Positions 12,121-63,999 of a stretch of DNA of 64,000 bases are shown in pieces; within the stretch, counting starts at the first letter, position 1, and each line of letters opens with the position of its first letter. A model generated the notes under the pieces. The model did no database searches. It saw only the letters and a program-made list of their open reading frames with translations, and was not told where the DNA came from. The position numbers were made by a program, and so were the translations under genes. This DNA is from Takakia lepidozioides (Eukaryota > Plantae > Bryophyta): assembly GCA_030704615.1 (NCBI GenBank), contig CM060731.1, positions 77,562,001-77,626,000 of the forward strand, given 5' to 3'.

Positions 12121-12160
12121 TTCATGAATCCCTAGAAAAAGTATAAAACAACAACCACAA

Positions 12161-12185: not shown

Positions 12186-12231
12186 GACGCGTAATGGCTC
12201 CACCCTCCAATATGAAATATATAAGGCAACA

Positions 12232-14710: not shown

Positions 14711-15323
14711 TGTCAAGGACGAGAACATGATTGAACACAAACAAGAGATAAGACTAGAGGTACAAGGCTAGACAAGAAATCAAGGTCGGCGTGGCCGAAT
14801 GCACAATGAGTAAATAGGAATCAAGACGATCTTTATAACAATGAACAAGAGTACAAGATATTGGAACACAACTTGAATACAGGAATGCTGGAAACTGGAC
14901 TGGAGTACCAGATACTGGAAACTGGGCTAGGGTACTGGGAACTGGAAACAAGAGTAGCTTGAACTGGTATTAGCGAGACTGAAGAGTGTCCAGTCTCGCC
15001 TCCTATATATACTGGCTACTAAGAAGCTTCCCTAAGAAGCTTCCCCTATAGAGGTTGATTGCTGGAGAAGTTTTCAAGATTAAACAAAGGTTTCTTGATG
15101 GAGAAGCTTCCTTAAACAAATGAGGTATCTTGATGGAGAAGTTTCCACCAAATGAAGCTTCCTGAGTAGTTTCCCAAGTTACTCTTGGTAATTTGGTAAA
15201 CTTCCGGTAACTTGGTAAGTAATGGTAAATCATGGTAAGTCATGGTAATTTTTCGGTAACTTGGTCACTTGGTAACTGCTAGTATTTACTCCTGGTAAGT
15301 TCCTCTGGGCTATGTCCGTGACA
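14711..15323 (-). mobile_element. 3' LTR of LTR retrotransposon family A
   Basis: On minus it starts TGTCACGG (15323) and ends TTGACA (14711); polypurine tract agaggagggggtga just upstream; followed by TAAGA; homologous to 58133-58460. Confidence 0.85.
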
Positions 15324-37300: not shown

Positions 37301-37329
37301 CATTCTCATGACACCATCTACCGCCGCTG

Positions 37330-37425
37330 GTTTGGCATGATATGATTGTAGTTCACATTCTTAATGAACGCTTTCAGCCTTGACCTCTTTGCGATCTTCT
37401 TCTGGGATTGCTTCTTCATAATTTA
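37330..37425 (-). pseudogene. RPL27: Ribosomal protein eL27 exon fragment, copy 1
   Basis: Translates IMKKQSQKKIAKRSRLKAFIKNVNYNHIMP, the eL27 signature, after a pyrimidine-rich intron-like stretch. Confidence 0.8.
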
Positions 37426-40740: not shown

Positions 40741-43740
40741 GGCGGGGGCTCCTTCGCACCGCGGGGCTGGAATGTGCAGAAGTGGGAGGAGGTGATGCTG
40801 CCTCGGCGGTCGAGCGCTTCTTACTAGGCGTGGACATAGACCATGACAAAGATGAAGACGAGCGAGGACATAGACCATGACCAAGACAAAGACGAGCGAG
40901 GAAGACCAAGACATGCAAAAGAGGAAAGAAGGACAAGGAGGGGAGTGTGATCACACACCCCCCCGATCTATAGTGAAGATCCGGCCGTTGTTGATTTCAA
41001 ATATGAACACGTGTCGTGCATCCGATACTATGGCCTTTTCGACTTTGAGACGTTAAACCCTAAACCACTTACAATCCTCCAGACAACTAGATGTAGTGAT
41101 TCACACAACTGACATGGATCCGTTAACTTTTTTTCGTTCAAAATTAGGCAAAGGAAACACACTGCAATGATGCCGTGTATGGCTCCGCTTTACATGCATT
41201 CTTGGAGAAAATGCGCATGATGTGTGAGAAGTAAACACAGTGCTCTGCCAAATGATTCAGCAAAAACAAACTCAACTGTAGTGGTTCTCCCATCGCAGAG
41301 AAGGGTCCATTCGACACCCATCGCACCATGCCAGGTTGAGGTCCTCACACACACCTACACACCAAGAATTTGCGAACCCACATCAGCTGGGAGAACATGG
41401 AAATTACCTCGTGGATCACATGCAAGCATGAATGAGAAATGGGTTTATGTTACATGGGAGATTTTGGTGTACCTGCGCGACATGCAACTCTGTCTACATA
41501 CTCCATAAGTCGCTGTCCCAAGACCCAAGTGGACAGGGGAGGCCGGTGAGTCTGTACCACAAATGGTAATCATACAGCCGAGGGTACTGCTGCCCAACGT
41601 GCAAAAGCCGCCGGCTGCAGGATGCTAGGCATGCGAACTCGGGCACAGCACGCCTCCTCTGCACCCCACCCCGTCCCAACCAGTGCAAAACAACCGTGCA
41701 TGCATTGACTGCCCTCAGGCTTTCTCTCCAGGCATTTATGGGTCTGCGATCTGCTACACGTAAGTGTCTTTGAATGCGACGATCAAAGGATCCGGTCACT
41801 TGCAGTTGCCGTCTCAAGGGCAACATTGCAAGAATCAGAATTAAGTAAGAAAGATGGTGGAAGAAGCTGCAAACAGCAAATGAGTGAAGTGGCAGGGCGA
41901 TGCTCCATTTTTAACATGCTCCCCTTCCCGCCATGGTGATAGAACCACACAAATGGACTCCCTTCCCGCCACGGTGCAATTTCACGGCAACGGAACGGGA
42001 TTGTCCGCCGAAACGTGATTTGGAGATGGCCTAAGACAAGTGGCGTAGGTTCTGGCCTTGTAGTCAGGTTGTTCACACTTCAATGCACACATTTCATACA
42101 CATTCAACCATATGCCCAAGATCACAACGTCGTCAATCGTGAAAATTGAAATTCCACGTACGTCCTCGATTCCTCACACACACACGAACTGTAGAGACAG
42201 GTCGTTTTCCAGGATGTCGTTGTTTGAGTCGATTTTGGTCATTTCTCTCAGTGTCTTGTTGAAAAGATTCTAGTTATGATGGGAAGCATCGTGATGGCTT
42301 TTAAATGGTTTGCTGTTGAGTGTAACTTTTCATCATGTTGTGGGATCTACCGGTTGGTATAAAATGTCAGCTGTCTTCTCTGCCAAAGGATGTGCGGCTG
42401 AACCTTTCAAAATTGAGATTGCAGGAGGAGGGAATTGACGGTAGTGAAATGGGAGTGGCAGAGCCAAATTGAGGAATCTCTGCAAAGGAGAATCCAGCCC
42501 CCTGCAACGGCGTGCACAAACAGCATTGAAGAGGCTCCCCAACAAAAATGAGTTCCCCTCGCCCATGCGGAGGACTTCCAAGTAATCACCCATGTAGACA
42601 GAACACCTGAGATGACAGGTTGTGGGAAAGAGAAGTGGCACCTGTCCGAGCCCTTGGGCTTTCAAGGATGCCATGCCCATGTGAACGTTGTTTGGGCACT
42701 ACAAGTAGATCTGAGGACGGTGTGCGCACACATCTCCTTCACCACAAAAGACATGAAGCATTTCGGGTGTGGATTGGAGATGGACCTGCAGACGAAGACG
42801 ATGAGGAGTGGGCACAATTGGACAATGCACACCCTCGAGGGAGCCATACAGACAGGCCAGACGAGGACTATGTCATGGGCGCATGACATGAACCAGGCAT
42901 GGACGGAGGGGTGGAGATTACTCGAATGTTGCAGGAAGCATTCCACATCATGGACGATGCTGAAGAGGGGGACGGCGCTGCGACAACTGGGGATGGTGAT
43001 GACGCAGGAAATGAAGGCATTCACGTGGGGGAAGGCGTGGAAGGAGGTGGAGACGGAGAATTGAATTCTGCACACATGACACTAGAAGAAGCATGTGTGC
43101 CACTGTACGAGGGATGCAAATCCACAAAGCTTGCTGCCACCATGCTGTTGATGAACCTGTGCACAACCCACGGTGTCTCAGACCATTTTGTGGACGAGTT
43201 GTTCTCTTTGCTTCGGCTGAACTTGCTTCCACAACCAAATGAAATGCCAAAAAGCTGTCACATGGCCAACCAAATGATTGGGAAGCTCGGCCTCAACTAC
43301 GTGAAAATTCATGCATGTCCAAAAAGACATGTACTTTTCAGAAGAGAGTACAAGGATGCTATGGAGTGCCCCAAATGCGGTGCAGCTCGATACCATGATG
43401 TGGGCAGGTTACAACAGCCAGCCAAGGTGTTGAGGCACTTTCCCCTTATCCCCCGTCTATTACGAATGTACAAATGCAAGACCATTAGTGAGCTCATGAC
43501 TTGGCATTCCAGGAATGCCTCAAACGATGGTTTGGTAAGGCATGTCCCAGATTCCCTTGCATGGAAGCATATAGATGCAACTTGGCCCGATTTTGCCGAG
43601 GACCCACGCAATGTGCGATTGGCTGTATCTACGGATGGAGTAAACCCATACGGATCAAAGAGTTGCACATGGTCCACATGGCCCGTGCAGTTGGTGGCAT
43701 ACAACCTGCCACCATGGTTGACAACAAAGAAATTCTTTGT
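40741..43740 (+). repeat. ~3-kb direct duplicate of 34260-37300
   Basis: Near-identical sequence throughout, with scattered substitutions and small indels. Confidence 0.92.
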
Positions 43741-46625
43741 CATGTTGTCTCTCTTGATTCCAGGCAAGGAGTCCGTGACAAATGCAAACATAGATGTGTA
43801 TTTGCAATCATTGATTGAAGAGCTACAGGAACTATGGATTGGAGTTGAAGCTTACGACATTTTGAAACCAGTAGGGCAACGGAGTTTCACCCTCCGTGCC
43901 ATACTCATGTGGTCAATCCACGATTTCCCCGCATATGGCCTTGTTGCGGGTTGCAAGACGAAGGGCTACAAAGGGTGCCCCATTTGTGGGCCCTATGTGG
44001 ATTCACGGCACTCAAAGCCACTAGGGAAGACAATATACATGGGGCATCGACGTTACCTTGCAAGAAACCACCCCTACCGACGAGCGGGAAGGCTCTTCAA
44101 TGGATGTGTTGAAAAGAGAATGGCACCAAATGCTGTGACACCGGAGGAGACATTGCAATTTGCAAAGGAGAAAGAGGCGTTCATGGAGATTGGAGGGAGA
44201 GACGGAAGTAGTGCGGATCCAGCCATGGAGCACGGGGTGAAGCGCCGGACAATCCTTTGGGATTTGCCATACTGGAAGGTGCATGAATCCCCCCTCCCCA
44301 TTCACTCACTTTCTTTCACATTGTGCTTCCTGGAATTACCTTTACTGTCAGGAGTCCTTCCACCAACTCCTAAGTCAGTGTAACTACTATGCAGTAGATG
44401 TTGAAGTCGTACACCTCACTGTGGAGAGGATCATGGAGTTGTTGAAAGCATAATGTAGTAACATGGGCAACTTCTGCCACATATTCTACTTTTTTTGCCC
44501 ATAGAACTTGGTCTCATGGGAGGACATTTGGCATTTCAGAACCTCTTGCAGCGGTACCTCCTGGACCCCATGCATTGTGAGAAGAACTTTTGCGAGAACA
44601 TTCTGAAGACTATCTTTGGGGAGAAGGATACGATAAACGTACGAAAGGACATGGAGATTGAAGGGATACAGTCACATCTGTGGCTAAGGCCTGATCCAAA
44701 TAGACCAGGCAAAGTGCTCATGCCAGCAGCATCATACGTCCTGACCAAATCAGAGCAAGAGGATTTTTTGAAGACATTGGGAGCCATGAAAGTGCCAACC
44801 GGATTCTCGGGTGCTTTCCAAAAGCATGCCATAAACAAGAAATGGTCGGGGATGAAGTCACATGATCTACACGTGATGATGCAGCAGATTTTGCCAGTGT
44901 GCATTCGGGGTACGATGGCGCCAGGTCCTCAAACAGCCATAATGCGTGTAAGTCGAGTGTTTAGGAAGATTTGTGCGAAGGTGTGGGATCCGAGGGACAT
45001 TACATCGTTGCATGAGGATGTGGCTATGACCCTATGTTTGCTGGAGAAAGAATTCCCTCCATCATTCTTTGACGTCATGACGCACTTGCTAGTGCATCTT
45101 GTAGAGGAGTTGCATGTGTGTGGGTCCGTAGCCAGCCGGTGGATGTACCCCATGGAGAGGTACATGAAGGATCTGAAGGGGTGTATGTACGCAACATGGC
45201 ACGGCCAGAGGGGAATATGGCGGAGGGCTACATCCGCGATGAAGCCCTGGGCTTCATGACAGAGTATATGTCTTCATTTGATGCAATACAACGACGGGTG
45301 TGGGACGAGAACGAGGAAGAAGGAGTTGTAGGCGAGGTCCTAGAAGGTGGTGGAACAAAGCGTGCCATGAGCCCGCGCCTTCGGGATGTGGCACATGATT
45401 ATGTGCTGAACAACACAACAACCATGACACCATGGAGACAGTGGGTGCCAACTTACATCCCTCCTGTGCTATTCTTAATGGTCTTTGTATGCTGGAATTA
45501 CATATATATTGTCACAAGTCATTCCGGCCACTATGGGAGTGGGATCGTGTACTAACAGGGTGCTTTAGACGACTACAGAGGGTGTTTCGTAGATCTTGGT
45601 TGTTGCTTGCAAGTGATTATGAAGTAGGCTGCATCACTACAGTGTGCTTGAAAGGACACACACTCTGCATGTGGCATGCATGTACAGCACAGTGTTGGTC
45701 AGGGGGACTGAGTTGCAGCTTCTATTTGGTTTCTGCCAGAAAGTACGCAGCGGAGAAGGTCCACCTGAAAACGGAACGGAGTGCATTTGCAAAAGTATGG
45801 CGGAGGGGCGGTCGTAGGCGCAGATCCCCGGTGGAGTACCCCTCAACAATGGAGGAGCTGCAGCCCTTTACAGTGTGGGTCAGATCTGCAATTGCAGTGT
45901 ACGCATCAGAGAACGAGGACCCAGATGAGGGCATGGTGAGTCTGTCATTCCCCCTAGGGCTGATTGCCACTTCGTACCGGTCAATGAAAGCATATGGCAA
46001 TCACTATAGAGTGGACGATGCCAACACCAGCCTCCTGGTGACTTATGACAGCGGAGTGGCATCATTTTTTGAACAAGATAGTAGGAGATGTGCACAAGAT
46101 CAGAATCCAATTTCATGCCATGTGTAATATGTAGGAGTGATCAAAGAGATCCTTAAACTAGACTATGGTCTTGTGAAGCCAATTCTATTCCGTTGTTCTT
46201 GGGTAAAAGCCAATATGGTAGGAGAGAATGCCACCATGAAACGGGATGAGTACGGGTTCCTCCTTGCTGATTTCAGAAAAATGCTACCACAAGATGAAGA
46301 GCCATTCATCTTCCCATCGCAAGTTGAGCAAGTTTTCTTTTCAGATGACACCCATGCGCCGAGATGGAAGGTGGTTCTTCACAAGGACCCCCGGGCCAAA
46401 CGAGTCGTGGCCGACGTCCATGATCTGGACCTAGGGGAGAATGCCGACCACGAGGGTCTGAGGGAACCACGAAATCTACCAGATACGGCCGAACCAGTCT
46501 CTTTGGAAGGAGCAGTTACCTTTAATGAGGAAGACATTCCAAGGTTGGTAATTACCGCAAGGCAAATTGCAGATGTGGGTAGTGAAGGGGAAGATTATTT
46601 GGATATAGATAGTGAGCCCAGCTGA
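42620..46625 (+). pseudogene. CACTA TnpD transposase, copy 2, near full length, with introns and frameshifts
   Basis: Transposase_21, HDFPAYG..CPIC, LDPMHCEKN, GMKSHDLH, FPPSFFDVMTHLLVHL..RWMYPMER (DUF4218-like), LFRCSW..EPFIFPSQVEQVFF (DUF4216-like); GT-AG intron ~44279-44539. Confidence 0.93.
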
Positions 46626-48485
46626 ATCTCAGTGTCCATTAAGCCAGCAGCTCATAGACGAGAGCTATGCTAAGGACTCTTACTGTCCTTAGAACCCATT
46701 TTGTACAGTCCTGCAAGCGCGCAAGGGCGAGACAGTTAATAGTATTGATAATGTCCCGGTATGTGGTCCGTACTGTCTTGTGAACAAACCTTTTTTTGTT
46801 CTGCCAATATTGTTTCTGACATGTGAGGAGAGGATCGTCTTCATGTACGGGAAGTAGACGTGAATGTGTGCATGCATTTTCTGGCCCAGCTGCATGCTTT
46901 CCAGGAACAAAGACCAGTGGAATGGGGGGTGTCTCCAAAGGAGCAGGACCGAACGACACCTTTTTGTGCTTCCCTTGCTTTCCTTCTCACCGTTGTTGCA
47001 TTCTCCCACCTGCCCAACAGCAGCACTCTCGAAGCAATAGCATGACATATGTTGCAACATGGTCTTCTTCACCAGCGAATGAGCTTTTTTGCTACATGTA
47101 CTGCCACGTCCACATTAACGTTGATCCCTGTAAGCACTTGGCAAGACACCCCAGAGCCGCAAATCCAGCAACCACCACAAACACATCTAACTGATTGTAG
47201 TGACACGGGAATAGCTCACTTGTAGAGGAATTGAACCTGCCAAATGAATGGCTCTGCCCCTTGTAGCACAAGTGCGATGCAAAAACAAGGTGAGTAGAAA
47301 ATGAAGAAGCACTTACGAGGTCCTCATCCCTCAGATGGGCTCCCACTTGTGCTCTGGAACTGTGCAGGCCTGACTAGCACCAAATTGCATGAATCCTAAG
47401 CCTATCCTCAATATCGCTTTGGACAGTCAGAACTCTGTTGGAGCCAGCAGTTCTGCAGCCGTAGGTGAAATACCAAAGTGGGTGAAAGCTAGGCTTGGAA
47501 CACAGCCAAAGTCAGCCCCGGGTACCAAGGTGTTCAGCCACAAGGCCGTGGTGTACTGGAGCAGAGGAGCAGGAGCTACACAAGTTTGTGCAATCAGACA
47601 TGGTTGCAGCTGGACACACTCTGCACAAAGCAACCATGAGCGGGGGTTCATTAGCAATGACAAGTTTGTTTTGCTTGAGGGAGATGCAATCATTCGCAAT
47701 GAGGACACCCGCAACCGTCTCAAAGCTTTCGAGTTGAGAGACTATCAGACCCTACCTTTGTTTTCTTTAGTGTTCAGTGAGCGGGAGATAGGGGAGTATT
47801 GCTTTGTTTCTACCTGGCAGAAAGAGGAGGAGGGTTGGTTAGAGCGAGCTACTGTAGCTTGGGACAAGGTTAGTGGCAGGTTTCTGGACATAGATATACC
47901 TCCTACACCTTACCATCATGCAGAGCGAGGCACTTTAAGAGAACTCTGGCAGTTGATAGCATAGATCAGGATTAGATCTTGCTTGGTCGGGCTTCTATTC
48001 TTCCCCTCCATCCTTGTTACTATTTTCATTACTTTGTACTTGTAGTTGCCAAAGCCTCTCTTGGTGGAGGCCAGTCAGTCCGGGGTTTTGGGCTGGGATA
48101 TTCTGCAGGATCCGCATTGCAGATGGATTTTGGTGTGGGGGTGTTGATGTTTTGATTTCTTGTGTTTGGATCCCCCCCAACACCTGCATGCTTGACTGTG
48201 CGCCATGTTGGTTTTGTGTGGGCGCTTGCTTTCATAGGGATTAGTGCGGATTTGATCACAGGTCAATCCTAGAGTATGCTGTCGGTGGTGAGGCTGGAGT
48301 GATGACCAGCAAGACCACCAGTGTTTCTTCTATGGTGAGGCTGGGTTGATGACCAGCCAACCATAGGAGTTCTTGCGGTGGATGCAGGTGCAGGTGCCAT
48401 GAGCCATTGGGATATGACCCTTAAACTGCAACAGGTGCCCACCCGTGTCACTATTAGAATTAGTACTATAGCCCTATAGTGTCAC

Positions 48486-49991
48486 GTGGGGGAGGTGCAC
48501 ATTGTGAGTGTCATCACGGAGTTACCCAAGGGTTTTGAGGGGAGTACGGCTACAGGCAGTAACAGTGAGAGTGGGTTCACAAGACGAGGTATTCGGTTCA
48601 GACCACCTTCACCTCCACCCTCAACTAGTGCAGAGTCAGACACAGACTCGGAGGCTTCATCAACAGGTGTGCAGTTTCATTCGCCATTGTTGTGGGACGA
48701 CATGGAGGAGAATTATGGAGCTACCAAGGGGCCTCGTAGGTACTCTGGAGCTGTGGGCACAATCAAGTTGGATGACTTTATCCAGCAGTTCGACAGCTGG
48801 TGTGATTTGCAGCAGATGCGCAATCCACAGCTATTCACCCCATTCATGGCATGGAAGGGACTGTTCCAGCATTTGGAAGGCCCGCCTATGGACGATTACC
48901 ACAAGTTCAGGCGAGGACATGAAGCAGAGATTGAGGAGTGGAGGATGTATTGGTCACCTGACTACGTCTCCATTACTCGAGGCACAACGCGACCAGTAGC
49001 TGCATCAGTACCAATATCTCCCATTGCCAGCACTAGTAGTGGAACAAGTAGTGCCGGTACTTCTACAGGTGGTACCAATTCAAAAGGTACTACTACTCCT
49101 CCTGCCACGACTACAACACATGTGCCTAGATTCAACCCGGTGGTGGAGTTCTTCCAGGAGTTGCGGAGGAACTACCAAGGTGTACGGACTGAGAAGCTGC
49201 AAAGTTTGCAAGACTTCCAGCGCAAACCCAGTGAGAGCCTGCGAGAGGCGTACACTCGTATGAGGCGCTTGATAAGTGTGACCCAAGGGGTTACTGAAGC
49301 TCAGGCAATCCAGTTTTGGTATGGAATTCTGGACAAGGAGCTCAAGAGAAGGGTGCGAGATTCAACCCTGTTACAAGTAGCCCAACCCACATTAGCAGAT
49401 GTGTTTCTGCTGGCTGAGCGGATTGAGCTCAACATGGTGGAGGAGCGAGTTGTTACCATTGGATTTGGCAAGGACATGCCTGCACGAGGCGCAGCTGCCA
49501 GCCCACAGGCACAAGGGACTGCCCAACAGCGTGGTCAGGGGGGCAAGGTTTCCCAACCCAAGTTCCATGGAGCTTACAGGGGACCTCAGGTGCAGAGGCC
49601 CATGGCATCTTTTGCAGGCCAACAGCAACCAGGGGTGATATGTTGGACATGTGGAGGACCCCATGTCAAGGGAGATTGCCCAGAGAGTGGCAGAAGGCCG
49701 GCACAAGCACAGCCTGCACAGTTGCAGTGTGGGCATTGTGGCAACTATGGGCATGGAGATGCCCAGTGTTATGACTTGCATCCTGAGTTGCGCCCAGACC
49801 AGTTCCAAGGGAACAATGGTGACCGGGGGCAAGGTGGACCAGCCCAGAGAGGACGAGGTGGTCGGGCACGTGGTGCAGGCCAAGGGCAAGCTCAACATGG
49901 CCAAGGACGCGGAGGTCAGGGTGTTGACCAAGGCATGGCCAACCGGCTTCAGCAGCTAGAGCAGAGGCTCGCTACCATGGCTACAGCTTAG
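48486..49991 (+). CDS. gag: gag with two Zn knuckles
   Basis: FQRKPSESLREAYTRM (QxxxE motif); CWTCGGPHVKGDC and CGHCGNYGHGDAQC. Confidence 0.85.
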   Translation: MGEVHIVSVITELPKGFEGSTATGSNSESGFTRRGIRFRPPSPPPSTSAESDTDSEASSTGVQFHSPLLWDDMEENYGATKGPRRYSGAVGTIKLDDFIQQFDSWCDLQQMRNPQLFTPFMAWKGLFQHLEGPPMDDYHKFRRGHEAEIEEWRMYWSPDYVSITRGTTRPVAASVPISPIASTSSGTSSAGTSTGGTNSKGTTTPPATTTTHVPRFNPVVEFFQELRRNYQGVRTEKLQSLQDFQRKPSESLREAYTRMRRLISVTQGVTEAQAIQFWYGILDKELKRRVRDSTLLQVAQPTLADVFLLAERIELNMVEERVVTIGFGKDMPARGAAASPQAQGTAQQRGQGGKVSQPKFHGAYRGPQVQRPMASFAGQQQPGVICWTCGGPHVKGDCPESGRRPAQAQPAQLQCGHCGNYGHGDAQCYDLHPELRPDQFQGNNGDRGQGGPAQRGRGGRARGAGQGQAQHGQGRGGQGVDQGMANRLQQLEQRLATMATA

Positions 49992-50639: not shown

Positions 50640-51090
50640 GGAGTTGTCTTGTTAGACAACCAGGATGGCATTTTCACTTTGAGTGGACCGGCAGGCAAGA
50701 AGTACCGGCCACTGCGGGTCTTGTTGGACTCGGGAGCTCAGCCACTGATGTTGGGCAGAGCTGCTATTGCAGGTTTGGGCCTCATGGAGGCGGATATGGA
50801 GCCTTGTCCTTTCCAGATACAGACATCTCTGGGAGGATCAGAGCAGGATTGGGGCATGACACGGCGTGAGTTGGCCATTGGATTACAGCCAGATCACCCT
50901 ACAGATGGCTCAGTGATGCGAGCCAAGGCCATTGTGACAGACGCGGTTTCTTACGATGTCCTTGTTGGTGGGGCAGTGTTGTACCCCATGGGCTTCGCCC
51001 TGGATTTTTGGGAGGAGTTAGCTTCCTATAGGCCTGGATGGCAGTCAAGGGAGGGTCGTCGTGTACAGCTCCCTGTGACATTCATTGGAG
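50640..51090 (+). CDS. Aspartic protease domain
   Basis: RVLLDSGAQPL ... YDVLVG. Confidence 0.8.
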
Positions 51091-51434: not shown

Positions 51435-52403
51435 GAAGGCATATGCCTTTTGGACTTGTTTGGCGGGATCAGCACTGGATTGGCTGCAGTGCTGTAGGCA
51501 GGTGTACGAGTTCGACGTTACCTATATGTGGAGAGGGATGAGACTGCACGACGCGTCTCACTGTGCCATGTTGCTCAGTTGGTACAGCAGTACCCTGATT
51601 TGTTGCCAGTGTCTGCAGTTCGTGGATACCAACAAGCCTTGCCAGCAAACATTTCGTTGCTGGGGGCGCAGGATTTGGAGCAGGTTGGCTCCATTGATCT
51701 GGTAGTGGCAGGTTGGCCCTGCCAAGGGCATTCATCAGCCGGGCATGACAATGGATTGCGAGACTCGAGGACGGGTCTGTTTTGGGAGATGGTGCGGATT
51801 TTGCGCCACTTGCAGCTTCATCAAGTTGTATCTCCAGCATACATCTTGGAGAATGTGCCACTGATGGGTGATTCTCGGGCCAGGGTGATGGCCAGTGTGC
51901 ATCAAGTCCGCTCGTGGCTTGGGTCAGCAGTGTTGCTGGATGCAGCTGCAGTGGGGTCACGGGCTCATCGTCCACGGCTTTGGTGGACTAACTTGATGCC
52001 ACCCGCACTGCTCAAGCGTGCATTTGATGGGGTGCAGCGGCCAGCACACCTCACAGTGGATAGCATTTTGGACATAGGGAGGCAGTCTCAACGTGTGAGA
52101 CACAATGACCGTTCACCTTTGGCAGTGGTCAACAGGATGGGTCAACCACGAGCAGCATTACCTACACTGCTCAGCTCCCCAAGATCCCATGCTTTTCGGG
52201 ATGGTGGACCTGGCCTCTTATGGGATAGCCAGTTGCAACAATTAGTGGAGCCCAATGCTGACGAGCGCGAGCGGGCAATGGGTTTTCCCACTGGTACCAT
52301 GGCGGTGCCATCTCTTTCTAAGGCATCACGTCGTCAGGTGTTGGGACAAGCAATGGATCTCAATTGCTTGACCTGGATTATCAGCTTGGCTATGGCTGAG
52401 TAG
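51435..52403 (+). CDS. C5 DNA (cytosine-5) methyltransferase domain, DNMT3-like, with one internal stop
   Basis: Motif I LLDLFGGISTG, II YVERD, IV DLVVAGWPCQ, VI YILENV, VIII AHRPRLWWTN, IX ERERAMGFP, X RRQVLGQAM, in canonical I-X order. Confidence 0.93.
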
Positions 52404-52689
52404 CGCAGAGTACGGAGTACACTTCCCTTCATGGTCTCCTTGCCTACCGAGACGTTACAGGCAGCGAGTGGGGGCGAGCAGGTGAAGACCACGAGGTGCA
52501 GGCCGCATCCATGGCACACGTGGGAGGTGCTCGAGGTTCATAAGGAGTTGGCAGCCAAGGCGGCGGTGATGGATCAGGTTGGGGATTTTTCTCGGGTTGA
52601 GGAGGTCCTCAAGGATGGGATGATGGGGCACGGTGAGACATTGTCACTGACAGAGGAGGCAGCTGGACTCAAGGTTGCAGTCACGGAGG

Positions 52690-54113
52690 ACGACTGGGAG
52701 CCTGATGTGGGACCTATAGTCACCGGAGGAGAGAGACGACGTATACGGCGGTTCTTGAGGGCTTACAGGAACTGCTTTGCCTTCAGTTTTAAGGACTTAG
52801 GAGCACTGAAGGGTCAAGAGATTCGCATTGAATTGGCTACTGACACGCCAATCTTTCGGAGACCCTATAGATATAGTGACATGGAGAGGTCCTTGATTCA
52901 GATGAGAACTCAGGACCTTTGGGAGGCTGGTTTGGTGGAGCTATCTGGGGGAGAGTATGCTTCAGCCACAGTGATGCCAGCCAAGAAAGATGTCTTTGGC
53001 AATTGGACGGAGAGACGTATATGCGGTGATTACCGGCCTGTAAATCGTCAGACCAAGTCCGATAGGTATGCCATGCCAACACCAGAGGAGATCTTTGATG
53101 CCATTGGGCATGCCAAGGTCTTTAGCACGTTGGATTTACGATCCGGATATCACCAGTTGCCGATCAAGGAGGCGGATAAGCAAAAGACGGCATTTTGGGG
53201 GATCAATGAGCACGGGAAGGATTGCCTATACCAGTGGCGGTTCTTACAATTTGGGCTTAAGAACGCTCCGGCAGAGTTACAGAGAGTCATGGACAGGATT
53301 CTAGCAAGGGTGGAGTTTGCTCGGTGCTACATAGATGACATCATCATCTTTAGTGCTACGGTGGAAGAGCATGAGAGACATCTTCAGGGGGTATTTGAGC
53401 GCTTGAGGGCGCATGGATTGAAGTTACATCCGGGAAAGTGCAAGTTTTTCCACAACCAGATTGAGTATCTGGGTCACATGATATATCCTGGAGGATTGGG
53501 GGTACAGCAGACTAAGGTAGAGTCCATTGCAGAGGTTCCACGCCCCACGGATGTGAGCCAAGTTTGAGCTTTCATGGGGTTAGCAAACTATTATAGACGG
53601 TTTGTTAAGGGATTTAGTGCCATTGCAAAGGCTCTAACCAAGCTGACCAAGGTGGACCAGGAGTGGCAGTGGGAAGATGAGCAAGAACAAGCTTTTCAAG
53701 AGCTCAAGACGAGGTTGACCTCGGCGCCCATCTTGAGACGGCCTATTAGGGGGCATCCTTTTCAGCTGCATACAGATTGGAGCATGTTGGGGCTTGGAGC
53801 GGTGCTCACACAGGTGGATGATGAGGGAAGAGAGTTCGTAATGGCTTATGCTAGCCGCTCGAACAACGTTGCAGAGTCTACGTATAGCTCATATGAGGGA
53901 GAATGCTTAGCTGTAGTGTGGGCCGTGGCACACTTCAGGTGCTATCTATACGGCAATCTCTTCACCCTTGTCACGGATCACCAACCACTCAAGTGGTTGA
54001 TGGAGTCAGACAAGCTTACGGGGAAGCTTGCACGGTGGGCACTCATCCTTCAAGAATATGACTTTCAGGTTGTGCATCGACCGGTTTGGTCAATCGCAAT
54101 GCAGATGGGTTGA
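52690..54113 (+). pseudogene. pol: RT and RNase H
   Basis: RICGDYRPVN..STLDLRSGYHQ..FGLKNAP..CYIDDI..YLGH; LHTDW..YEGECLAVVWA..TDHQPL..RWAL. Confidence 0.95.
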
Positions 54114-54220: not shown

Positions 54221-55763
54221 TTGGCAGCGGAAGGCCAGGTTGCACCTGCAACAGGGATGACTGTAGATCAAGTGTCTGAGGACCCTGAGGCCAGCAATGA
54301 GCAAGGTGGCGCCAAAGATATACATGAGGATTCAGTTGTGTTGGACTACCTCCGCACTGGAGACACTGCAGCCACTGTGACTGCCAAGGAGAGGGATCGG
54401 ATCCTACAACGAGCCAAGAGGTTCAAGTGGGAGGGGACACACCTGCTCCGAGTGTGGGAGGATGGTCGAGTGAGGATTGTGCCTCACCCAACACAGCGGG
54501 CACGGTTAGTGCGGCATGCCCACGAGGAGTTGGGGCATTTTGGAGTACGACGCACTCATAGCCTACTGCAGGGGCAGTATTGGTGGCGTGGTATGCACAC
54601 AGAGGTGCAACAATTTGTGGCTAGGTGCATGGTGTGTGACAGGGTACGCGATTCATTCAACGCCCATACTCCACAATTGCACCCTCTTCCGATCATGGGA
54701 TTGGGCTACAGGTGGAGTCTTGACTTCGCAAGGCCGTTGCCACTGACCATGCGCCACAACAAGTATGTGTTGGTGATGGTGGAGCACTTCTCCAAGTGGA
54801 TTGAGTTGGTTCCATTGCCTGATAAGGCTAGTGAGGGAGCTGTGTATGCATTCTTGGATTGTGTGCTTAGCCGATTCGGTGCTCCAGCTGAGGTACTCAT
54901 GGACCAAGGGAGAGAGTTTTTTGGGGGAGTTTCAGGCTTTATGTGACAAGGCCTTGATAGACCACCGCACCACTTCTCGGGATCATCCTGAGGCCGATGG
55001 CTTGGCAGAGAGAGTTGTTCAGACAGTAAAGAGGGGTTTGCGCAAGTATGGCTTGCAGAAGGGACACCTAGGAGATTGGGACCTTCAGTTACCCTGGTTA
55101 GCCATGGGCTACAGGTTCAGCAAGCAAGCATCACTTGCCTCTTTCTCACCATACTTTCTTCACTTAGGCCGAGAGCCGGATTTGCCTACATCCATTCACA
55201 GGGAAGCCGCTACAGTTCTTAACCTTGACGATCCGGACGTGTGGGCACGTGCATGTGAGCAGCGTGCAGAGTTGTTCAAGAAAGTCATGCCCATGGCTTT
55301 CGAGAACCTTGTCATTGCACAACACCGTGATACGTTGAGGTATGCTACCATACGTGGTGGGGGCTATCGTCCTGGGGTTCAGAGATTCAACCCTGGTGAC
55401 TATGTCTATCTGCAGCAGACTGCTCCTATGACCTTGGATGTGACTGCAGGACGTGTTATTTTGAGGGTTCAAGAGGTCTTGCCCTCAGGCGTCTTGGTCT
55501 TGGAGGGTCGGGATGACATAACTTGGAAGGACCATGTGCATAGTTGTGCGCCATGTCACCTTCCGAATGTCAATGACAGGATTGACCCAAACCTGGCAGT
55601 GGTATCTGCAAGTTTGAGGTGCATGTTATGTGAGTCTGCTAGAGGGGCAGCCACCATGCTGGTGTGTGATCGATGCTCTAGAGGTTGGCATATGGGATGC
55701 TTGACTCCACCTCTTGAGATGGTTCCGGATGGGGATTGGTTATGTCCACATTGCATTGGATAG
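54221..55763 (+). pseudogene. Integrase (HHCC, DDE core) with a C-terminal PHD finger
   Basis: HEELGH..CMVC; WSLDF, MDQG, HPEADGLAER; C4HC3 PHD CMLC..MLVCDRC..GWHMGCLTPPL..VPDGDWLCPHC. Confidence 0.93.
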
Positions 55764-56023
55764 TGGGAGTGGATACAACCATGGAAGGCTAACAAGAAAC
55801 GCAAGGCCAAGCTACTAGGAGACCTTGAACACACGATATCCTGGCTCAAGTTCACAGATTGCAAGACGGCGACTAACGATGGGGCTACTCTTGTACCCAG
55901 CCTCTTGGTCTTTAGAGTTTGAGTACAATAGGGACAGTGATAGAGGACTTTGTACGGTTGTGGCTATTACATCTTGTAGCTATCTGGAGTTAGAGGGACC
56001 TATCCACTAGCTAGGGGGGCGAT

Positions 56024-56550
56024 TGTGGCAGACTACTTTATTGTGCATATATGTGTGGTGTGGTTTGGACAGCGATGTAGTTGTGTAGCGATACGTATGC
56101 GCACGACAGCTGTCAAGTTAAATAAGCACAATGTGAAACTAACTAGAATAAAGCTAGTTATTTGTATTTAACACTTGGATTTAGGTCAAGTGTTAAATCA
56201 GGTGTCAAGTTTAGTCTGACACCTGAACTGTCTTATCTTCACGAGAGCGTCAGTCGCGCAGCTCATCTCTCTTGAGTTGAGCCTGCGCGACCGAGCTCCT
56301 TCATCGTTTAGAACTGAGTGTGCTTATGATGGGAGGATAGGTTGTTGTGGGGTGGAGTCCTTATAGCTTGGGGTGCCCCTGGCTCGACTATTATCTGAAA
56401 GAGTGATGACGAGATGGATTTCATGTTTCTTGTGTTAAGAGTGTCATTTTTAGTTTTCTATCTATTGTGGCAGACTACTTTATTGTGCATATATGTGTGG
56501 TGTGGTTTGGACAGCGATGTAGTTGTGTAGCGATACATATGCGCACGACA
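56024..56550 (+). repeat. 3' terminal unit: two 85-bp TG..CA direct repeats (56024-56108, 56466-56550) around a 357-bp spacer
   Basis: tgtggcagactac...gcgcacgaca occurs twice with 1 mismatch; a PPT precedes only the first copy. Confidence 0.9.
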
Positions 56551-58132
56551 AAAGCTATAAAAGTATTAATTCATGGTGTTACTTCATCTTCTTGGATTCG
56601 TATTCGTAAAGATAAACTTCATGGTAGACAATTAAAGGCAGGTGATCTCCTTGAAAAACCAAATTTGGATAAGCTATTGCGCTCAGATCTAGGCTATAGA
56701 GATCTAGAACGATTACGAACATCGCCCGATTACTTGGCTCGTCTTTGAAAAGAAGCTTTGCAATGATTCGACAATTGGGACCCCCTACTTTTTTTGTCAC
56801 ATTCACAAGTGCTGAAAGTAAATGGACGCTACTATTAGAAACCCTTCATTCTCTCAACTATGAAAAATTAGAAATTCCGGATAATATACAAAACTTAGAA
56901 ACTAAACACATTGTCGAGTTAGTCCGATCCGACCCCGTTACATGTGCTCGATATTATGATCATTGAATGGCTGCTTTTAGACATCTATGTAAAAAAGATC
57001 ATACCATTTTTGGACCCCTACGTGATTTTTTCTATGTTACGGAATTTCAAAGTAGAGGTAGTGAACATGACCATGGAATGTTGTGGATAGCTAATGCACC
57101 CATTTATGGAATAGACCAAAATAAGATAATTGAAGATTTTGTGGATAAATATATAACATCTGATAGTAATGTTCTTCCACCTAGTCTTCGTGAAGCTCAA
57201 ATCCATCGACACAAATGGACATGTAGAAAAAAAAATCAAGCTATATGTCGTTTTCACTATCCATTGCCCCCAATGATTTGTACTATTATTTTGGAACCTT
57301 TCACTGAAGAATTAATCAGAAAGGATTTAAAACATTATACATTGATATCAACTCAAATATTTACTGAGTTAAATAAAATGGATTTGATGACTTTCTTTCA
57401 TTATTAAATATTGATTTAAAAAAAACATATATATGTGCATTGCGTATTAGATTGCAAAAACCTACTTTATTTTTAAAAAGAGCATGTAAAGATATCCGTA
57501 CTAATGCATTTGGTATCCACGCTGGCCCATTGTGGCAAGCTAATATTGATACACAACATATTCTCGATCCTTATGCTGCAACAAGTTATTGTACTTCTTA
57601 TTTAACTAAGATAGATAAAACTATTACTAATGAATTTCGTACAATAATAGAAAAATGTAAATCAGAACAAGTTGATGCAAATGTTAGAATCCGTAAGATG
57701 GGAAATGTGTTCTTCAATGCCCAGCAAATGTCCGCTCAATTAGCTGCATACGTTGTCTTATCTATACCATTATATCATGCATCCAGAACTTTTAAATTTC
57801 TAAACACATCACCGCCTCAAGAACGGGCATTTGTGCTAAAAGCTAATAAAGATTTACGACGACTCTCTCCCAAATCTACGGATATAAAGTGTGCATCTGC
57901 TATCGATAAATACATAGATCGCCCAACTACATTAAATCATTTAAGTCTAATTGAATATGTAGCAGATTATACAATGGAAATAATAATAATATAAAACGTC
58001 GTAAGAAATTTCATATCATTAGATATGTGCATTACAATGAGCATCAAGACTCTGAAAATTATTATCGAGAACAACTTCTACTTTTTCATCCATTCATAAA
58101 AAATGAAGAATCTCAAAAAGACAACCATAAGA
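56551..58132 (+). mobile_element. Helitron2 Rep half (partner of 12232-14710)
   Basis: FAMIRQLGPPTFFVTFT, TEFQSRGSEHDHGMLW (HUH), CRFHYP, YCTSYLTK; ends QKDNHK at TAAGA. Confidence 0.92.
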
Positions 58133-58460: not shown

Positions 58461-60567
58461 TGTTAGAGGACTGTAGGGGACTTAGACACTTATACGGGAT
58501 CTGTAGGGTATCCTTAATTTTTGCACAGACTGAGACAAACAGGAACCTTAGGGGTGACAGCAGCGCACTGTAGAGGGGGGTTACATACCCCACACAGCCG
58601 ACACAGCAGTCACAGCCCACACAGCCAACACAGCCCGTCACAGTCGTCACAACCCACACAGCCAACACAGCCCGTCACAGTCGTCACAGCCCACACAGCC
58701 GACACAGCCGTCACAGCCCACACAGCCAACACAGCCCGTCACAGTCGTTACAGCCCACACAGCCCACACAGCCCGTCACAGTCGTCACAGCAGACACAGC
58801 CCACACAGCCAGTCACAGCCCGGCACAGCCACACAGCCAGTCACAGCCCGACACAGCCAAACACAGTCAGTCACCGCTTGACACAGCTGTCACGATAATA
58901 GGGAACGAAGAGTAGGACAGGGAACGACTGTGGGGAACAACACCAGTGAAGGGAACATGTTAGTTCACATACGACGGTTAGAGAGGGAAACGGTTAGAAC
59001 CGCGGATAGGAGGATAAAGGAAAGAACGGGGAATAGGAAGGGGATCATTATTCGGGGAGGACTTCGGAGACAGGCGGGAGCGGAGATCGGAGAGCACGAT
59101 GAAGGAGAAAAGAGGATTAGTAGATGCTTGTCATATGCAAAGCTAGAGTGATATTGTAGAGCAGATTAGAGACATAATGGATTCGGCCTGATACTTGATA
59201 AATCATAATCTGATACTTATACGATACAATCACACTGTGTAGAGAGATCTGAGTGAAGCTGTGGATTGAATGGAGGAGTTAAGGAAACCGATAAATTGAT
59301 GAAGCAAACTGATACTTAATTATCAATGGTGAGGTAGCTAAGATGAATGCGGAAAAGGAAACAAATAGGAAACACCCCCATGATACACTAGCTGTAGGTC
59401 ATGACTGATTGTTCTGCGCGGGCTGAGTACTTAGAGATTTCCAACTCTTCTATCTTGGAGTTTCCGCCTCGGATAGCGAAGGGATGGGTGAGTAAAAGCC
59501 GTGCGACATTTCCCACTGTCAACACCAAAATGTCGCACGGCTTTTACTCACCCATCCCTTCGCTATCCGAGGCGGAAACTCCAAGATAGAAGAGTTGGAA
59601 ATCTCTAAGTACTCAGCCCGCGCAGAACAATCAGTCATGACCTACAGCTAGTGTATCATGGGGGTGTTTCCTATTTGTTTCCTTTTCCGCATTCATCTTA
59701 GCTACCTCACCATTGATAATTAAGTATCAGTTTGCTTCATCAATTTATCGGTTTCCTTAACTCCTCCATTCAATCCACAGCTTCACTCAGATCTCTCTAC
59801 ACAGTGTGATTGTATCGTATAAGTATCAGATTATGATTTATCAGGTATCAGGCCGAATCCATTATGTCTCTAATCTGCTCTACAATATCACTCTAGCTTT
59901 GCATATGACAAGCATCTACTAATCCTCTTTTCTCCTTCATCGTGCTCTCCGATCTCCGCTCCCGCCTGTCTCCGAAGTCCTCCCCGAATAATGATCTCCT
60001 TCCTATTCCCCGTTCTTTCCTTTATCCTCCTATCCGCGGTTCTAACCGTTTCCCTCTCTAACCGTCGTATGTGAACTAACATGTTCCCTTCACTGGTGTT
60101 GTTCCCCACAGTCGTTCCCTGTCCTACTCTTCGTTCCTTATTATCGTGACAGCTGTGTCAAGCGGTGACTGGCTGTGTTTGGCTGTGTCGGGCTGTGACT
60201 GGCTGTGTGGGCTGTGTCTGCTGTGACGACTGTGACGGGCTGTGTGGGCTGTGTGGGCTGTGACGACTGTGTGGGCTGTGACGACTGTGACGGGCTGTGT
60301 TGGCTGTGTGGGCTGTGACGGCTGTGTCGGCTGTGTGGGCTGTGACGACTGTGACGGGCTGTGTTGGCTGTGTGGGTTGTGACGACTATGACGGGCTGTG
60401 TTGGCTGTGTGGGCTGTGACTGCTGTGTCGGCTGTGTGGGCTATGTAACCCCCTCTACAGTGCGCTGCTGTCACCCCTAAGGTTCCTGTTTGTCTCAGTC
60501 TGTGCAAAAATTAAGGGTACCCTACAGATCCCGTATAAGTGTCTAAGTCCCCTTCAGTCCTCTAACA
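58461..60567. repeat. Two full family B LTRs tail-to-tail (58461-59508 plus, 59531-60567 minus) with a 22-bp spacer
   Basis: ...gccgtgcgaca TTTCCCACTGTCAACACCAAAA tgtcgcacggc...; arms near-identical except in the minisatellite. Confidence 0.95.
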
Positions 60568-60604: not shown

Positions 60605-63600
60605 TTACTGTTTCCGAGTAGCAAGCCTTTGTGAGTGAGCACCTTGTTGACGTTGAGAGTTTCGTGGTGGGCTGTGTGTACGAGCCCGAGGTCTGTCTCT
60701 GGTTGATGGAGATGGTTGATCACTACCTGGATAAGTGAGGCCTTCTGGAGGTTGATATCGAGGTAATCTTTCCGGCATAGGAGATCCCCTTTGTTTCTTC
60801 TCTTCCATCTGAATTGCATAGTCTTCTCCCATGTCAAAAGAATTTTGTGAAGAAACAGTTGTATCAGAATCCTCATCGCCTCTCAGGTGTTTTAATTTTC
60901 GAACTTTTTGTGGAATCATCTGGGGCATATAATGCTGTCCTACCATGTCTGGAAGTTTGCATTTTACAACCTGGTGTAACCGTTGAACAGCAAAATTGGT
61001 ATAGACACTGAGCTCCTTGTCTATCCAGATGAGTGGGGTACCAATTACTGGTGCCGCGTGCAAGTATTTCCATGCGATATGTCCCTTATAGAAAATGTCA
61101 TCAAGTCCAAATTTCTGTGTTGACAAATTGTTGCAGGCTGCTTGAAACCATGAACGAATTTGAGAATCCTTTTGTATCATAACTTTTGGGTCATATAGGT
61201 ACATATGAGGTGGCACCGAAGGTAATACCCAATGATCTCCACTGGAGTAACTTTGAAAGCGTGCTTGCATCTTTTGTTCCTCTATGTGGTAACGTATCAG
61301 GAAACAAGCAGCGTAGTATAGCCCGCACCCCATGACAATACTTGCTATCTCCTTGGTCTTGGTATAAATGAGTCCATGTACAACCTGGAAAGCAACCAAT
61401 TCCCTCAACATGGTACCTGCCTCGTGCCAGTATTGTGCAAAGTGATGATCTTCAATATGTCGATTGTTTGGAAGAACTTTAGTCCTGGTTGCCACTGGCA
61501 GCCAGATACGCATGATTTGGTAGTAATGTGCGAATGACTGCGGAGGACTAAATTCTTTCCAAGCCAAATCCAACATGATGGGAATTTGGTTGAAGGGCAT
61601 AATCATAGCCCTACTGTACTCCCTGGCAGCTGGAGTTTTAGGTGGGTTAAAAGCTGCATTGCCCCATACCTCCGGCTGTGGTGGCTGTGGTGTGGTTGTA
61701 GTAACCACAGGTTCAGCTACTGGTACACTGACCTGTTGTGGTGGTGGTGGTACTGGTTCCTGTACCATTGGCATCTCCTGCACCTCCTGTGAAGACTGAA
61801 AAGCCAGAGTTCTGGCTTGCAAATAAGAAGCCATTAGTTGTTCCTGAGGGATATAGACTCTTTGGTCGATGTTTGAAGTGAGGTCTTCCACTTGAGTCTG
61901 GAGTCCGTCTACATCCTCTTGTAGCTCTGCTATCCTACTATAGACATTGTCTATAGTAGTTGTGGCAATGTTCTGCACCTGCAGTCTGAGCTCATTCATC
62001 TCGCTTAGGGTGAGCTTCCGTGGGCTTTTGCCCTCTACTGGCCCTTGTGCTAACCAGACCTGCATAAGGCTGTTATCCACCAAGCTGCTTGTGGTTCCCC
62101 TGAGAGTTTGCTCCTCTCTTTGCTTATACAATTCCAACTGCTGTTGTAAAGCCTTCATGCGCTTCGCCTGTGGCTCAACCAATTGTGCATAGGCAGCAAG
62201 TAAATTATTGGCTTCTTTCGAAGCCTTGTTACTGACCGCGATTTCATTTCTATTGGCCACGATGGTTTGTTGCAACTCCACGATGTATTTCTCATTCTCA
62301 GCTTCCATCTGCCTGTATTGCTTGAAAGTATCTTCATTGCGACAGATTGTATTCTTCATATCGACAATGAGCTTCATGTGCTCCACATTCTCTTCTTCTG
62401 CCTTCGTACATTTTTCCGCTTGACTGTTTATTTCTTTTGTTGATTGGTCAAGCATAGTTGTAAATGTAGCGCATTGTATCTCCATCCTGTTATGCACTGT
62501 CTGCAACTCCGTATGTAGTGCATTCAGTTCTTGTAACTTGCTTTCATGCTGCACCTGCATTTGGTATAGCTGTTGCTTATGTGCTTCGTGCAACTGGTCT
62601 TGCGCAAGGCCTGCTTCAATCAATTGTTGCTTGGCCAATTGCAAAGCCATTTCTGTATTGGCCAAGTCCTGCTTCATCTTGAGAGTGACCTCTTCATCGA
62701 CCTTATTTGAACACTCAGTGGCAAGTCGAGCCTCAAACTCCTTCCTGAGTTCTTCTTTCAAGGCTGTCAATTGGGTAATTGGAACATGGGTTTTGACATA
62801 AGTCCCCAACAAATTAAGTGTCCTGCCTATGGAATTCATCAGCATTGCCTGTTGAGGGTCATCATGGTGAGGTTGCTGCTGTTCCTCCCGATCTTCAACA
62901 GTATGATGTCTCACTAACCATTCAGACCATTGTCCCACCGGATTTTCTTCCTGAACTACTTCATTTATGACCGGTGCTACAGTGTCATGGCCTTCCGCCT
63001 GTGGTACCTCCGACACAGGTGTGTGCATTATATGTACCTCAGGATTTTCTTGGGCAACTGTTGCACCTCTGGGATTTCTGTCTGCTTGACCAGACCAGAA
63101 TATTCATAGAGAAGGTCCCCTTTCTCTATTTCCGCCACTATCTGTTCTGTAGTTGGAATATCTATCCCTTCACTTTCCAAATCTATTATTTCGGGTTGAG
63201 CTGCATGGATAACTTGTGACCTTGTGACAAGTCGTTCAAGTGGCTGTGTTGGTTGTGATGCAGAAGTAACTTCTTCCTCCCTCTCTGAAGGTCCTGCTTC
63301 CAGTAATAACATTCTTTTGTGCTGCTGTGCCCCTCCCTGGTCATGAGCTTGGGAAACATTATCATGCGGAATCCGTGAAGCCAGTGGATCCGCCACTACA
63401 GTCTTTCCCCTTCTCTGCCTCTTAGTCTCGGGTTGTGCTGCTAGTCCACCCTCACTGTGTGAAGAGCCTTGCTCTTCCATTGCAGTTGTTTCTGGCTCAA
63501 ACACTCCCATTTCCTTCCTTTCTTGTGCATTAAGTATGCCAGAACTAAGGATTATTTGAGCAATGATTGGGCCAGACACTATGATAGGAGATTTTGCGGT

Positions 63601-63999
63601 AGTACCTTGTAATCTTTTCATCTCCTCTACCAGTGCGTTGTACATTATGTCCGCCCATGGTACCTCTTGTCCCTTCAAGCCTTTGAGGATTTCCTCTGTG
63701 AAGGATCTGCTCAAATATTGTTGGTTCTGTTTCAGGGCAATCAGAACGTTCAATACTTGGCCTATGTCTTTTAACCCTGGGTACACAGCTTTGGTACAAG
63801 CATAACCCTGAGTTTTAAAGAAACTCCCTTCTTGGAATAAATCCCCTATTTGCAGTCTTTCTCTGTGTTCCTCCACATACACATGACCTTCTGGCAATCG
63901 AAACAATTGCTGGAGGTATAGGGGAGTAATCATTAATTCAACTCCCTTCACCGTTGTTGTTCCTGTCTTTGGCTCAAAGTTCTGCAAAAATTGTAACAT
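60605..63999 (-). CDS. Family B accessory ORF (323 + 807 aa, one frameshift), followed by PPT and 3' LTR
   Basis: N-terminus resembles plant-transposon/Athila env-like domains (TVKGVELMITPLYLQQLFRLP..VPWADIMY); long coiled coil; PPT ~60571-60584. Confidence 0.78.

Follow-up and report, generated by a model that had tools for sequence, protein, structure and literature searches.

A land-plant Gypsy-type retrotransposon family with a DNMT3-like methyltransferase domain, a probable readthrough stop and split terminal repeats

The discussion of PMC5890265 leaves open for what reason cytosine methyltransferases are carried by retrotransposons. The closest described system is KnitGypsy-Dnmt3 of Klebsormidium nitens (de Mendoza et al. 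2018, PMC5890265; named Gypsy-DNMT3 in bioRxiv 10.64898/2026.05.21.726589). In the available text of the former source it is viewed as acquired within the K. nitens lineage and has a Ka/Ks under 0.2; its methyltransferase (MTase) lies in one ORF with reverse transcriptase (RT) and RNase H (RH) (PMC5890265, peer-review file), and it did not methylate yeast DNA, a result that its authors call inconclusive (PMC5890265). The family described here shares with KnitGypsy-Dnmt3 the Gypsy domains, an intronless and unpermuted DNMT3-like domain, purifying selection (here as seen between families) and DIRS-like repeats in the order A1, ORFs, B, A2, B. It differs in occurring in land plants and in having a conserved stop that separates the MTase from the RT. 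Another DNMT3 on a retrotransposon is SymbioDIRS-Dnmt3 of Symbiodinium, which performs de novo CG methylation in yeast and for which methylation of the cDNA has been proposed (PMC5890265, available text). That element, however, is a dinoflagellate tyrosine-recombinase element resulting from an independent capture, whereas the present family has a DDE integrase.

The termini and the junction between them also have counterparts elsewhere. Split-direct-repeat elements of the DIRS type (PAT, Ngaro, TOC1) have A1...B1-A2-B2 termini and a tyrosine recombinase, and integration from circles has been proposed for them; in contrast, the present family combines such termini with a DDE integrase, TG...CA ends and 4-bp target duplications. 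In IS3/IS911, a DDE enzyme of the retroviral-integrase type cuts the junction of abutted ends in a circle. These are, however, bacterial DNA transposons without reverse transcription, whereas the junction found here lies inside an LTR-like unit. Ogre elements split GAG-PROT from RT-RH-INT by an intron of about 274 bp (PMC6317226, available text); the present family has a single in-frame stop instead, and its first frame (ORF1) includes the MTase. Finally, host DNMT3s of non-flowering plants, such as PpDNMT3b (Yaari et al. 2019, PMC6453930, available text), have an unpermuted DNMT3-type domain like that studied here and a C-terminal DUF3444. Unlike PpDNMT3b, the MTase described below is embedded in a retroelement ORF, with no DUF3444 in the Pfam result.

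We analyzed a stretch of 64,000 nt (the window), which holds an element with the domain order gag-PR-DNMT-RT-RH-INT-PHD, where PR is the protease and INT the integrase (Table 1). It agrees with Ty3/Gypsy elements in the order gag-PR-RT-RH-INT with a DDE integrase, whose residues D, D and E are all present, and in having TG...CA ends, a polypurine tract and a target duplication within the 4-6 bp range (in 5/5 complete related insertions). It departs from them in its split repeats, which stand in place of two complete equal LTRs. Two other assignments were rejected: chromovirus, because Pfam gave no chromodomain match after the integrase and a PHD finger is found there instead, and Troyka (CG...CG ends, 3-bp duplication, animals only; PMC12440569, available text), because of the TG...CA ends and 4-bp duplications. 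Both the integrase-terminal PHD finger and the split direct repeats are features absent from the initial annotation of this DNA. Homology of gag to the N-terminus of the Marchantia proteins P0003 and P0004 is clear by eye, and the two frames of gag and PR are one in 21 of 27 loci; in those relatives whose PR matches Pfam, E ranges from 3e-6 to 5e-3. The open frame at the 5′ edge has no Pfam match, was found in none of the 83 loci and has a top Atlas score of 0.79, and coverage by sister-copy contigs climbs in the bin 47202-47552. No 5′ copy of repeat A (A1) was found elsewhere in the window, and no target duplication of the window copy was found in it.

Table 1. Features of the Gypsy-DNMT3 element in the window (positions counted from the first letter of the window)
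Feature	Position	Strand	Evidence or remark
190-codon open frame, 5′ edge of internal region	47392..47964	+	sister-copy contigs cover it
gag, two Cys/His knuckle-like motifs (about 49641-49770)	48702..49988	+	PF03732 E=0.0024, under curated cut-off
Aspartic protease, LDSG at 50724	50640..51080	+	weak PF13650 E=0.046
DNMT3-like C5 cytosine methyltransferase domain, unpermuted	51435..52400	+	stop at 51495-51497 breaks it
MTase-RT linker	52401..52694	+	stop 52401 private to window copy; 63-nt in-frame deletion at 52662/52664
Reverse transcriptase, YIDD	52695..53564	+	PF00078 E=7e-31; stop at 53565 directly after
RNase H	53568..54080	+	PF17917 E=2e-36; frameshift near 54082
DDE integrase with zinc-binding domain	54317..55583	+	PF17921 E=2e-16, PF00665 E=2e-11; frameshift near 54920
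PHD finger, integrase C-terminus	55620..55757	+	PF00628 E=1.1e-10
Polypurine tract	56013..56021	+	sequence; identical tract precedes repeat B in related loci
Repeat B1, ends ...CGACA	56022..56108	+	99% identity to B2
Palindromic B/A junction ACA-GC-TGT, putative integrase attachment site	56102..56115	.	same in L001, L010, L081, L082
Repeat A2, starts TGTCA	56111..56463	+	placed like A2 of L050, L054, L059, whose elements open with A1
Repeat B2, element 3′ end	56464..56550	+	repeat with B1; coverage drops after bin 56328-56678

The MTase domain carries its motifs in unpermuted order: motif I LFGG (F at 51459), motif IV GWPCQ (C at 51720), motif VI ENV (51849), motif VIII RPR (51969-51977) and motifs IX/X ERAMGF (52269) and LGQA (52341). 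This agrees with the motif set read by the initial annotation, as does the position of the domain downstream of the protease LDSG and upstream of the YIDD-bearing RT. The Pfam profile PF00145, which had been proposed as a check, matches the domain with E=6.8e-14. Among solved structures, the nearest by sequence is DNMT3A (E=5e-11), followed by DNMT3B, DRM and HhaI. An AlphaFold model built from a 41-row alignment (pLDDT 94.3) likewise has DNMT3A as its top Foldseek match (E=7.6e-20, TM 0.73), a match that spans the whole model, so that the earlier DNMT3-like call stands by both sequence and fold. The catalytic Cys, Glu and Arg reported at the outset are present, and relatives keep them as well: among 87 full-length proteins, the catalytic C is found in 81, the E in all 87, and the two R in 83 and 85. 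Where relatives depart from the motifs, the substitution is in many cases C>T or G>A, the pattern that methylation by the host would leave. Judged by these matches, the resemblance is far beyond chance, and they support the presence of a DNMT3-type C5 methyltransferase carried by a retrotransposon in a land plant.

The window copy itself is dead, and the MTase cannot be made from it as it reads now, because it has five in-frame stops (49989, 50091, 51495, 52401 and 53565), of which that at 51495 falls in the MTase just after motif I, and two frameshifts (near 54082 and near 54920). Stops 49989 and 52401 are private to this copy, since the contigs of run X1 have another letter at these places in >99% of the summed depth; stop 51495 is not among the 40 variant rows listed for the X1 contigs, of a set with 611 more. 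The initial annotation had described gag, PR, MTase, RT and RH as sharing a single frame; the frame is indeed the same throughout, but the five stops mean that it is not open.

Other copies were studied through contigs from sequencing runs and through public loci (L numbers), and protein relatives (P numbers) through two protein searches, which together gave 208 matches (88 longer ones and 120 of 247 near-length ones listed). Named relatives come from Marchantia polymorpha, M. paleacea, Calypogeia, Riccia, three Sphagnum species and Closterium, with about 55-74% identity for those in Marchantia, Calypogeia, Riccia and Sphagnum; among the 208 matches listed, most of which are nameless, none is named as Klebsormidium or as a vascular plant. 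The searches gave no protein named as a host DNMT3 or DRM. Because these relatives stand in public annotations of Marchantia, Calypogeia, Riccia and Sphagnum, the land-plant family is less unique than the initial annotation implied. The metagenome loci were the best 80 of 148 and were not de-duplicated; of those with enough flank, 64 of 71 have an RT downstream of the MTase and 41 of 54 have a PR upstream of it. Run X1 placed 84,616 contigs on a 10.5-kb stretch with every bin covered (contig depth here is not a copy number), and one 5-kb contig from a second organism spans the MTase through to the PHD finger. Viral contigs yielded no relative. Sister copies lacking the domain would have spoken for a one-off insertion; instead, the same architecture recurs in dozens of loci and in named genomes. 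On this evidence, the DNMT-bearing Gypsy elements are a real family, in which the domain is family-wide, and which is old and present in many copies.

The MTase tree was a quick, unrooted one (101 rows, element-borne sequences only, SH-aLRT support only, no outgroup, long branches flagged). It places the window MTase in a 29-row clade (SH-aLRT 99) with liverwort and Sphagnum sequences, and the window RT falls in a matching 12-row clade (SH-aLRT 98). In a 31-row clade (most of P0041-P0076, including P0061), RNase H precedes and the integrase follows the MTase in all members long enough to show it; one of its proteins is labeled Chromochloris, an attribution that we take from the source tag Chrzof1. 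The DNMT and RT trees both group these RH-DNMT-INT members, so the domain has either moved within the element or been captured on two occasions. A PHD finger closes the integrase in the PR-DNMT-RT and RH-DNMT-INT architectures alike; the nearest PDB matches of the finger in the window are CHD4, PHF12, KMT2D, KMT2C, PHF21A and KDM5B.

Two loci, L081:1-9285 (CADCWO010000201.1) and L082:1-13480 (JBBASD010000061.1), are filed in cyanobacterial metagenome-assembled genomes and yet are Gypsy-DNMT3 elements with unbroken frames; their placement in these bins is likely due to eukaryotic contamination, to judge by what they encode. P0113 likewise carries a bacterial protein label. The L081 assembly is circular and includes a single B+A unit. 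L082:122-12171 holds a 3265-codon frame, RT-RH-DNMT-INT-PHD, followed by a separate 713-codon frame of no assigned function, and the same palindromic junction as in the window occurs at 12877.

The initial annotation had placed the MTase inside pol, as part of a single polyprotein. In the window’s lineage, however, the MTase is the last domain of the gag-PR frame, which ends at a conserved stop, and the single polyprotein is an artifact of the 63-nt deletion in the linker. At the deletion point (52662/52664), sister copies hold an in-frame stop: an X7 contig bridges the point with 64 letters in place of 1, and loose contig ends in X1 and X5 continue with in-frame UAG and then C. In the window’s own family, 2 of the 6 letters that follow the stop were not observed. 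The deletion thus removed the family’s ORF1 stop, which explains why the MTase-RT link of the window copy is free of it.

The same stop recurs among the related loci. The MTase-RT linker is in frame in 35 of 52 loci, and codon 81 is a stop in every one of the 34 in-frame linkers that are 291 nt long. When loci are anchored at the RT start (n=51), the stop place reads TAG in 32 and TAA in 13; the remaining six are four of a differently spaced subfamily, one mis-anchored locus and one with GAG. In the main family (35 de-duplicated loci, nine with UAA as the stop), CAA follows the stop in 35/35, CCC comes next in 32, the frame to the RT is open in 35/35, and an AUG stands three codons past the stop in 34/35. 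The type I readthrough motif of tobamoviruses is UAG-CAR-YYA (PMC3542737, available text), and CAA CCC of the main family is one base off it. A second subfamily has UAA CAA UUA (L074) or UAA CAA UCA (L058, L064 and L076), L053, L055 and L057 have AAA or AAG at that place, and L061 is without a stop. L081, which is unbroken and has 51% identity, reads UAG CAA UCA followed by 1047 stop-free codons, with its first Met at codon 117, inside the RT. The background rate is low: among the 37,768 stop triplets that the loci contain, only 0.7% are followed by CARYY. The three linker types are mutually non-alignable, with 16, 23 and 27 open codons from stop to RT. RNA structure after the stop is modest (z of -2.8, -1.3 and -2.2 versus mononucleotide shuffles) and is not counted as evidence.

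Protein relatives give the same picture. There are 29 PR-DNMT proteins that end 16-183 residues past the MTase, without RT, and all except P0067 fall in one 59-row clade (SH-aLRT 95). A continuous PR-DNMT-RT frame, the KnitGypsy type of shared MTase-RT ORF, was seen in P0037, P0038 and P0040 and not in the stop-bearing land-plant clade; others have a continuous RH-DNMT-INT frame. The stop therefore marks one clade. Since the relatives hold an in-frame stop before the RT, in a CAA-YY context and within linkers that otherwise cannot be aligned, ORF1 is Gag-PR-DNMT, and the production of RT-IN-PHD likely depends on readthrough of the stop.

The ends of the element are also unusual. The window element has no LTR pair; an 87-nt repeat is found at 56022 and 56464, after the polypurine tract (PPT). 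Related loci occur in a long form, A-internal-PPT-B-A-B, which is complete in L050 and L054/L059 and represented by its 3′ part in L009, L010 and L051, and in a short form, in which B abuts the flank, at 10 loci, among them complete A-internal-B copies in L011, L035 and L065. B never precedes A at 5′ ends (about 14 distinct 5′ ends). An ordinary pair of two complete equal LTRs is ruled out by these split direct repeats, both in the window and in the related loci. Elements end in TGTCA...CGACA, decayed in some loci, and 4-bp target duplications were found at 5/5 independent complete insertions. The palindrome ACA-GC-TGT at the B/A junction is shared by the window, L001, L010, L081 and L082 (the last of the RH-DNMT-INT type), with decayed variants elsewhere, and its central 2-nt spacer is missing from integrated ends. 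As a candidate primer-binding site, no TGG start was found after repeat A, and self-matches are only 8-9 nt and of low complexity. Taken together, the split repeats, 4-bp duplications and palindromic junction suggest that a DDE integrase inserts the element from circles. The A-internal-B form could also arise by B1 x B2 recombination after insertion.

Purifying selection on the MTase, on which the initial annotation had made its reading depend, is seen between families. Comparison of the window with the loci gives pN 0.21 and pS 0.73 (saturated) for the MTase, pN 0.19 and pS 0.77 for RT, and pN 0.30 for PR, which supports the view that the MTase is as conserved as RT between families. Within a family the picture is less clear. 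We contrasted common with singleton variants across 46 de-duplicated loci of the Sphagnum-like family, excluding C>T and G>A; for the MTase, the excess of silent changes among common variants (5/9, versus 51/157 of the singletons) is not significant (p=0.26), unlike that in RT (p=0.013), RH (p=0.001), PR (p=0.035) and INT (p=0.02). Within the decayed family dN/dS is 0.56 for the MTase and 0.44 for RT, values that are blurred by neutral decay. A stop-free MTase is found in only 3 of 57 de-duplicated loci, so most of the evidence comes from decayed copies.

From the observed anatomy, conservation, ORF1 stop and termini, we infer readthrough, packaging, enzymatic activity, substrate and circles as parts of one life cycle. 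The MTase, which ends the Gag-protease frame, would be made at the Gag level and packaged into particles, where the protease would free it. RT, RH, IN and PHD would be made by readthrough of the UAG. Reverse transcription would yield B-A-internal-B-A, closing into 1-LTR or 2-LTR circles, and the integrase would cut the internal ACA-GC-TGT with a 2-nt stagger, giving rise to both A-internal-B and A-internal-B-A-B. The MTase would methylate cytosines of the cDNA, probably at CG, and new copies would arrive pre-marked; the integrase-borne PHD finger would read histone H3 tails at the target. Several of the CHD4, PHF12, KMT2D, PHF21A and KDM5 fingers prefer unmethylated H3 tails. We give an even chance to the core of this proposal, a Gag-level MTase that is packaged, released by the protease and methylates new, likely circular cDNA before integration. 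More tentatively, the family may represent an ancient green-lineage Gypsy clade, still abundant in non-flowering land plants, whose particles would hold the element’s own DNMT3 in amounts like those of the coat protein, whose RT and integrase would be kept scarce through readthrough of the tobamovirus type, and which would integrate from circles rather than linear cDNA, its DDE integrase opening them at a palindrome inside the LTR.

The same features can be read in other ways. The MTase could act on chromatin, joined to the integrase and PHD finger in a readthrough product or integration complex, and methylate host DNA or the site of insertion. The PHD finger and the MTase would then act as reader and writer, the finger taking the place that the ADD domain has in animal DNMT3. 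The position of the PHD finger at the end of the integrase in both architectures, its nearest solved relatives (CHD4, PHF21A and KDM5-type fingers) and the adjacency of MTase and integrase in the RH-DNMT-INT clade fit this reading. In the window’s lineage, however, a stop separates MTase from integrase, so that most MTase would be made without integrase, and we consider action on chromatin unlikely. Less probable still is that the same packaged enzyme is accompanied by RT-RH-INT-PHD made through splicing that removes the stop, as in Ogre, or through re-initiation. Public gene models from Marchantia, Riccia and Sphagnum do skip the stop (P0006, P0008, P0011, P0039 and P0173), pyrimidine-rich tracts ending in AG follow it, and the AUG after the stop in the main family would suit re-initiation. 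The gene models nevertheless skip the stop at differing junctions, the stop-to-RT stretch is in frame and open in all three non-alignable linkers, L081 has no Met before RT, and the CAR-YY context would be needless by either route.

Lower again we rank, as improbable, a domain that works without DNA methylation, by binding or shielding the cDNA or methylating RNA, or a domain whose constraint is relaxed in some land-plant subfamilies. The inactivity of the Klebsormidium enzyme in yeast (PMC5890265, available text) and the within-family MTase result (p=0.26) are in keeping with this reading, but 81-87 of the 87 proteins keep the SAM-binding and catalytic residues, the match to DNMT3A extends along the full model, and pN between families is like that of RT. 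A one-off host-gene capture, an assembly chimera or an algal contaminant is very improbable; nothing found beyond the broken state of the window copy speaks for such an accident. Against it stand the dozens of loci and named genomes with the same architecture and the second-organism contig from MTase to PHD. Host plant DNMT3s, moreover, bear DUF3444, of which Pfam reported none in the window. As for algal contamination, which the initial annotation had raised against itself, it is unlikely because PPR repeats of the PLS type, decayed by many frameshifts and including an E motif, lie in the window at 3414-6900, and those of their listed best matches that have a source name are all land plants (Diphasiastrum up to 57% identity, Ginkgo up to 55%, Ceratodon 48% and Adiantum 33-45%). 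The highest identities listed, those to the lycophyte Diphasiastrum, hint faintly at a seed-free vascular host.

Within the literature covered, neither a land-plant member nor the ORF1 stop nor circle-type integration in this family was found described, and the Marchantia gene ids of the family had no match. The main text and searchable supplements of PMC5890265 have 0 occurrences of “PHD,” and neither 4-bp duplications nor a palindromic junction were found described there. A PHD finger is known from a Gypsy element of Chlamydomonas, and the accessible part of REXdb mentions neither PHD, methyltransferase nor Marchantia. The available texts of PMC12344493 and bioRxiv 10.64898/2026.05.21.726589 cite KnitGypsy for streptophytes, with no land-plant case found there, and those of PMC6890710 and PMC8616336 hold nothing further on the family. 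The land-plant range alone is a modest extension of KnitGypsy-Dnmt3; what is new is the position of the MTase on the Gag side of a stop of the readthrough type, together with the signature of integration from circles.

Members in Marchantia and Sphagnum put the family in organisms with genetics and methylomes. The ORF1 stop predicts abundant MTase in particles, which favors action on cDNA. Split termini together with 4-bp duplications point to integration of circles by a retroviral-type integrase, and retroviral circles are usually regarded as dead ends. Finders that require two equal LTRs likely miss such elements, which can also inflate DNA-methyltransferase gene counts in bryophyte annotations; stop-free ORF1 proteins already stand there as ordinary genes (e.g., Mp4g09160 and Mp8g17980). 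If the proposed cycle is true, a self-methylating retroelement that integrates from circles would be open to study in Marchantia.

The window holds further features outside the element. Pieces of Rep/helicase at 8526-14712 and 56551-58100, with a DUF6570 match, are presumably Helitron-like by their motifs, and the second abuts the 3′ end of the Gypsy-DNMT3 element; an exonuclease-endonuclease-phosphatase domain (12232-12981, minus strand) lies among them. Duplicated fragments of a CACTA transposase (Transposase_21) are found upstream of the element, at 36576-37340 and 42887-46625. Related long ORFs of 715 and 832 codons, plus a 323-codon ORF, occur at 23319-25466 (plus strand) and 60605-63999 (minus strand); they have no Pfam match, adjoin Gypsy remains and tandem repeats, and may be accessory genes that belong to another retroelement. 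A 9/28-nt repeat forms two arrays, at 58584-58900 and 60184-60454, which by eye run in opposite orientation.
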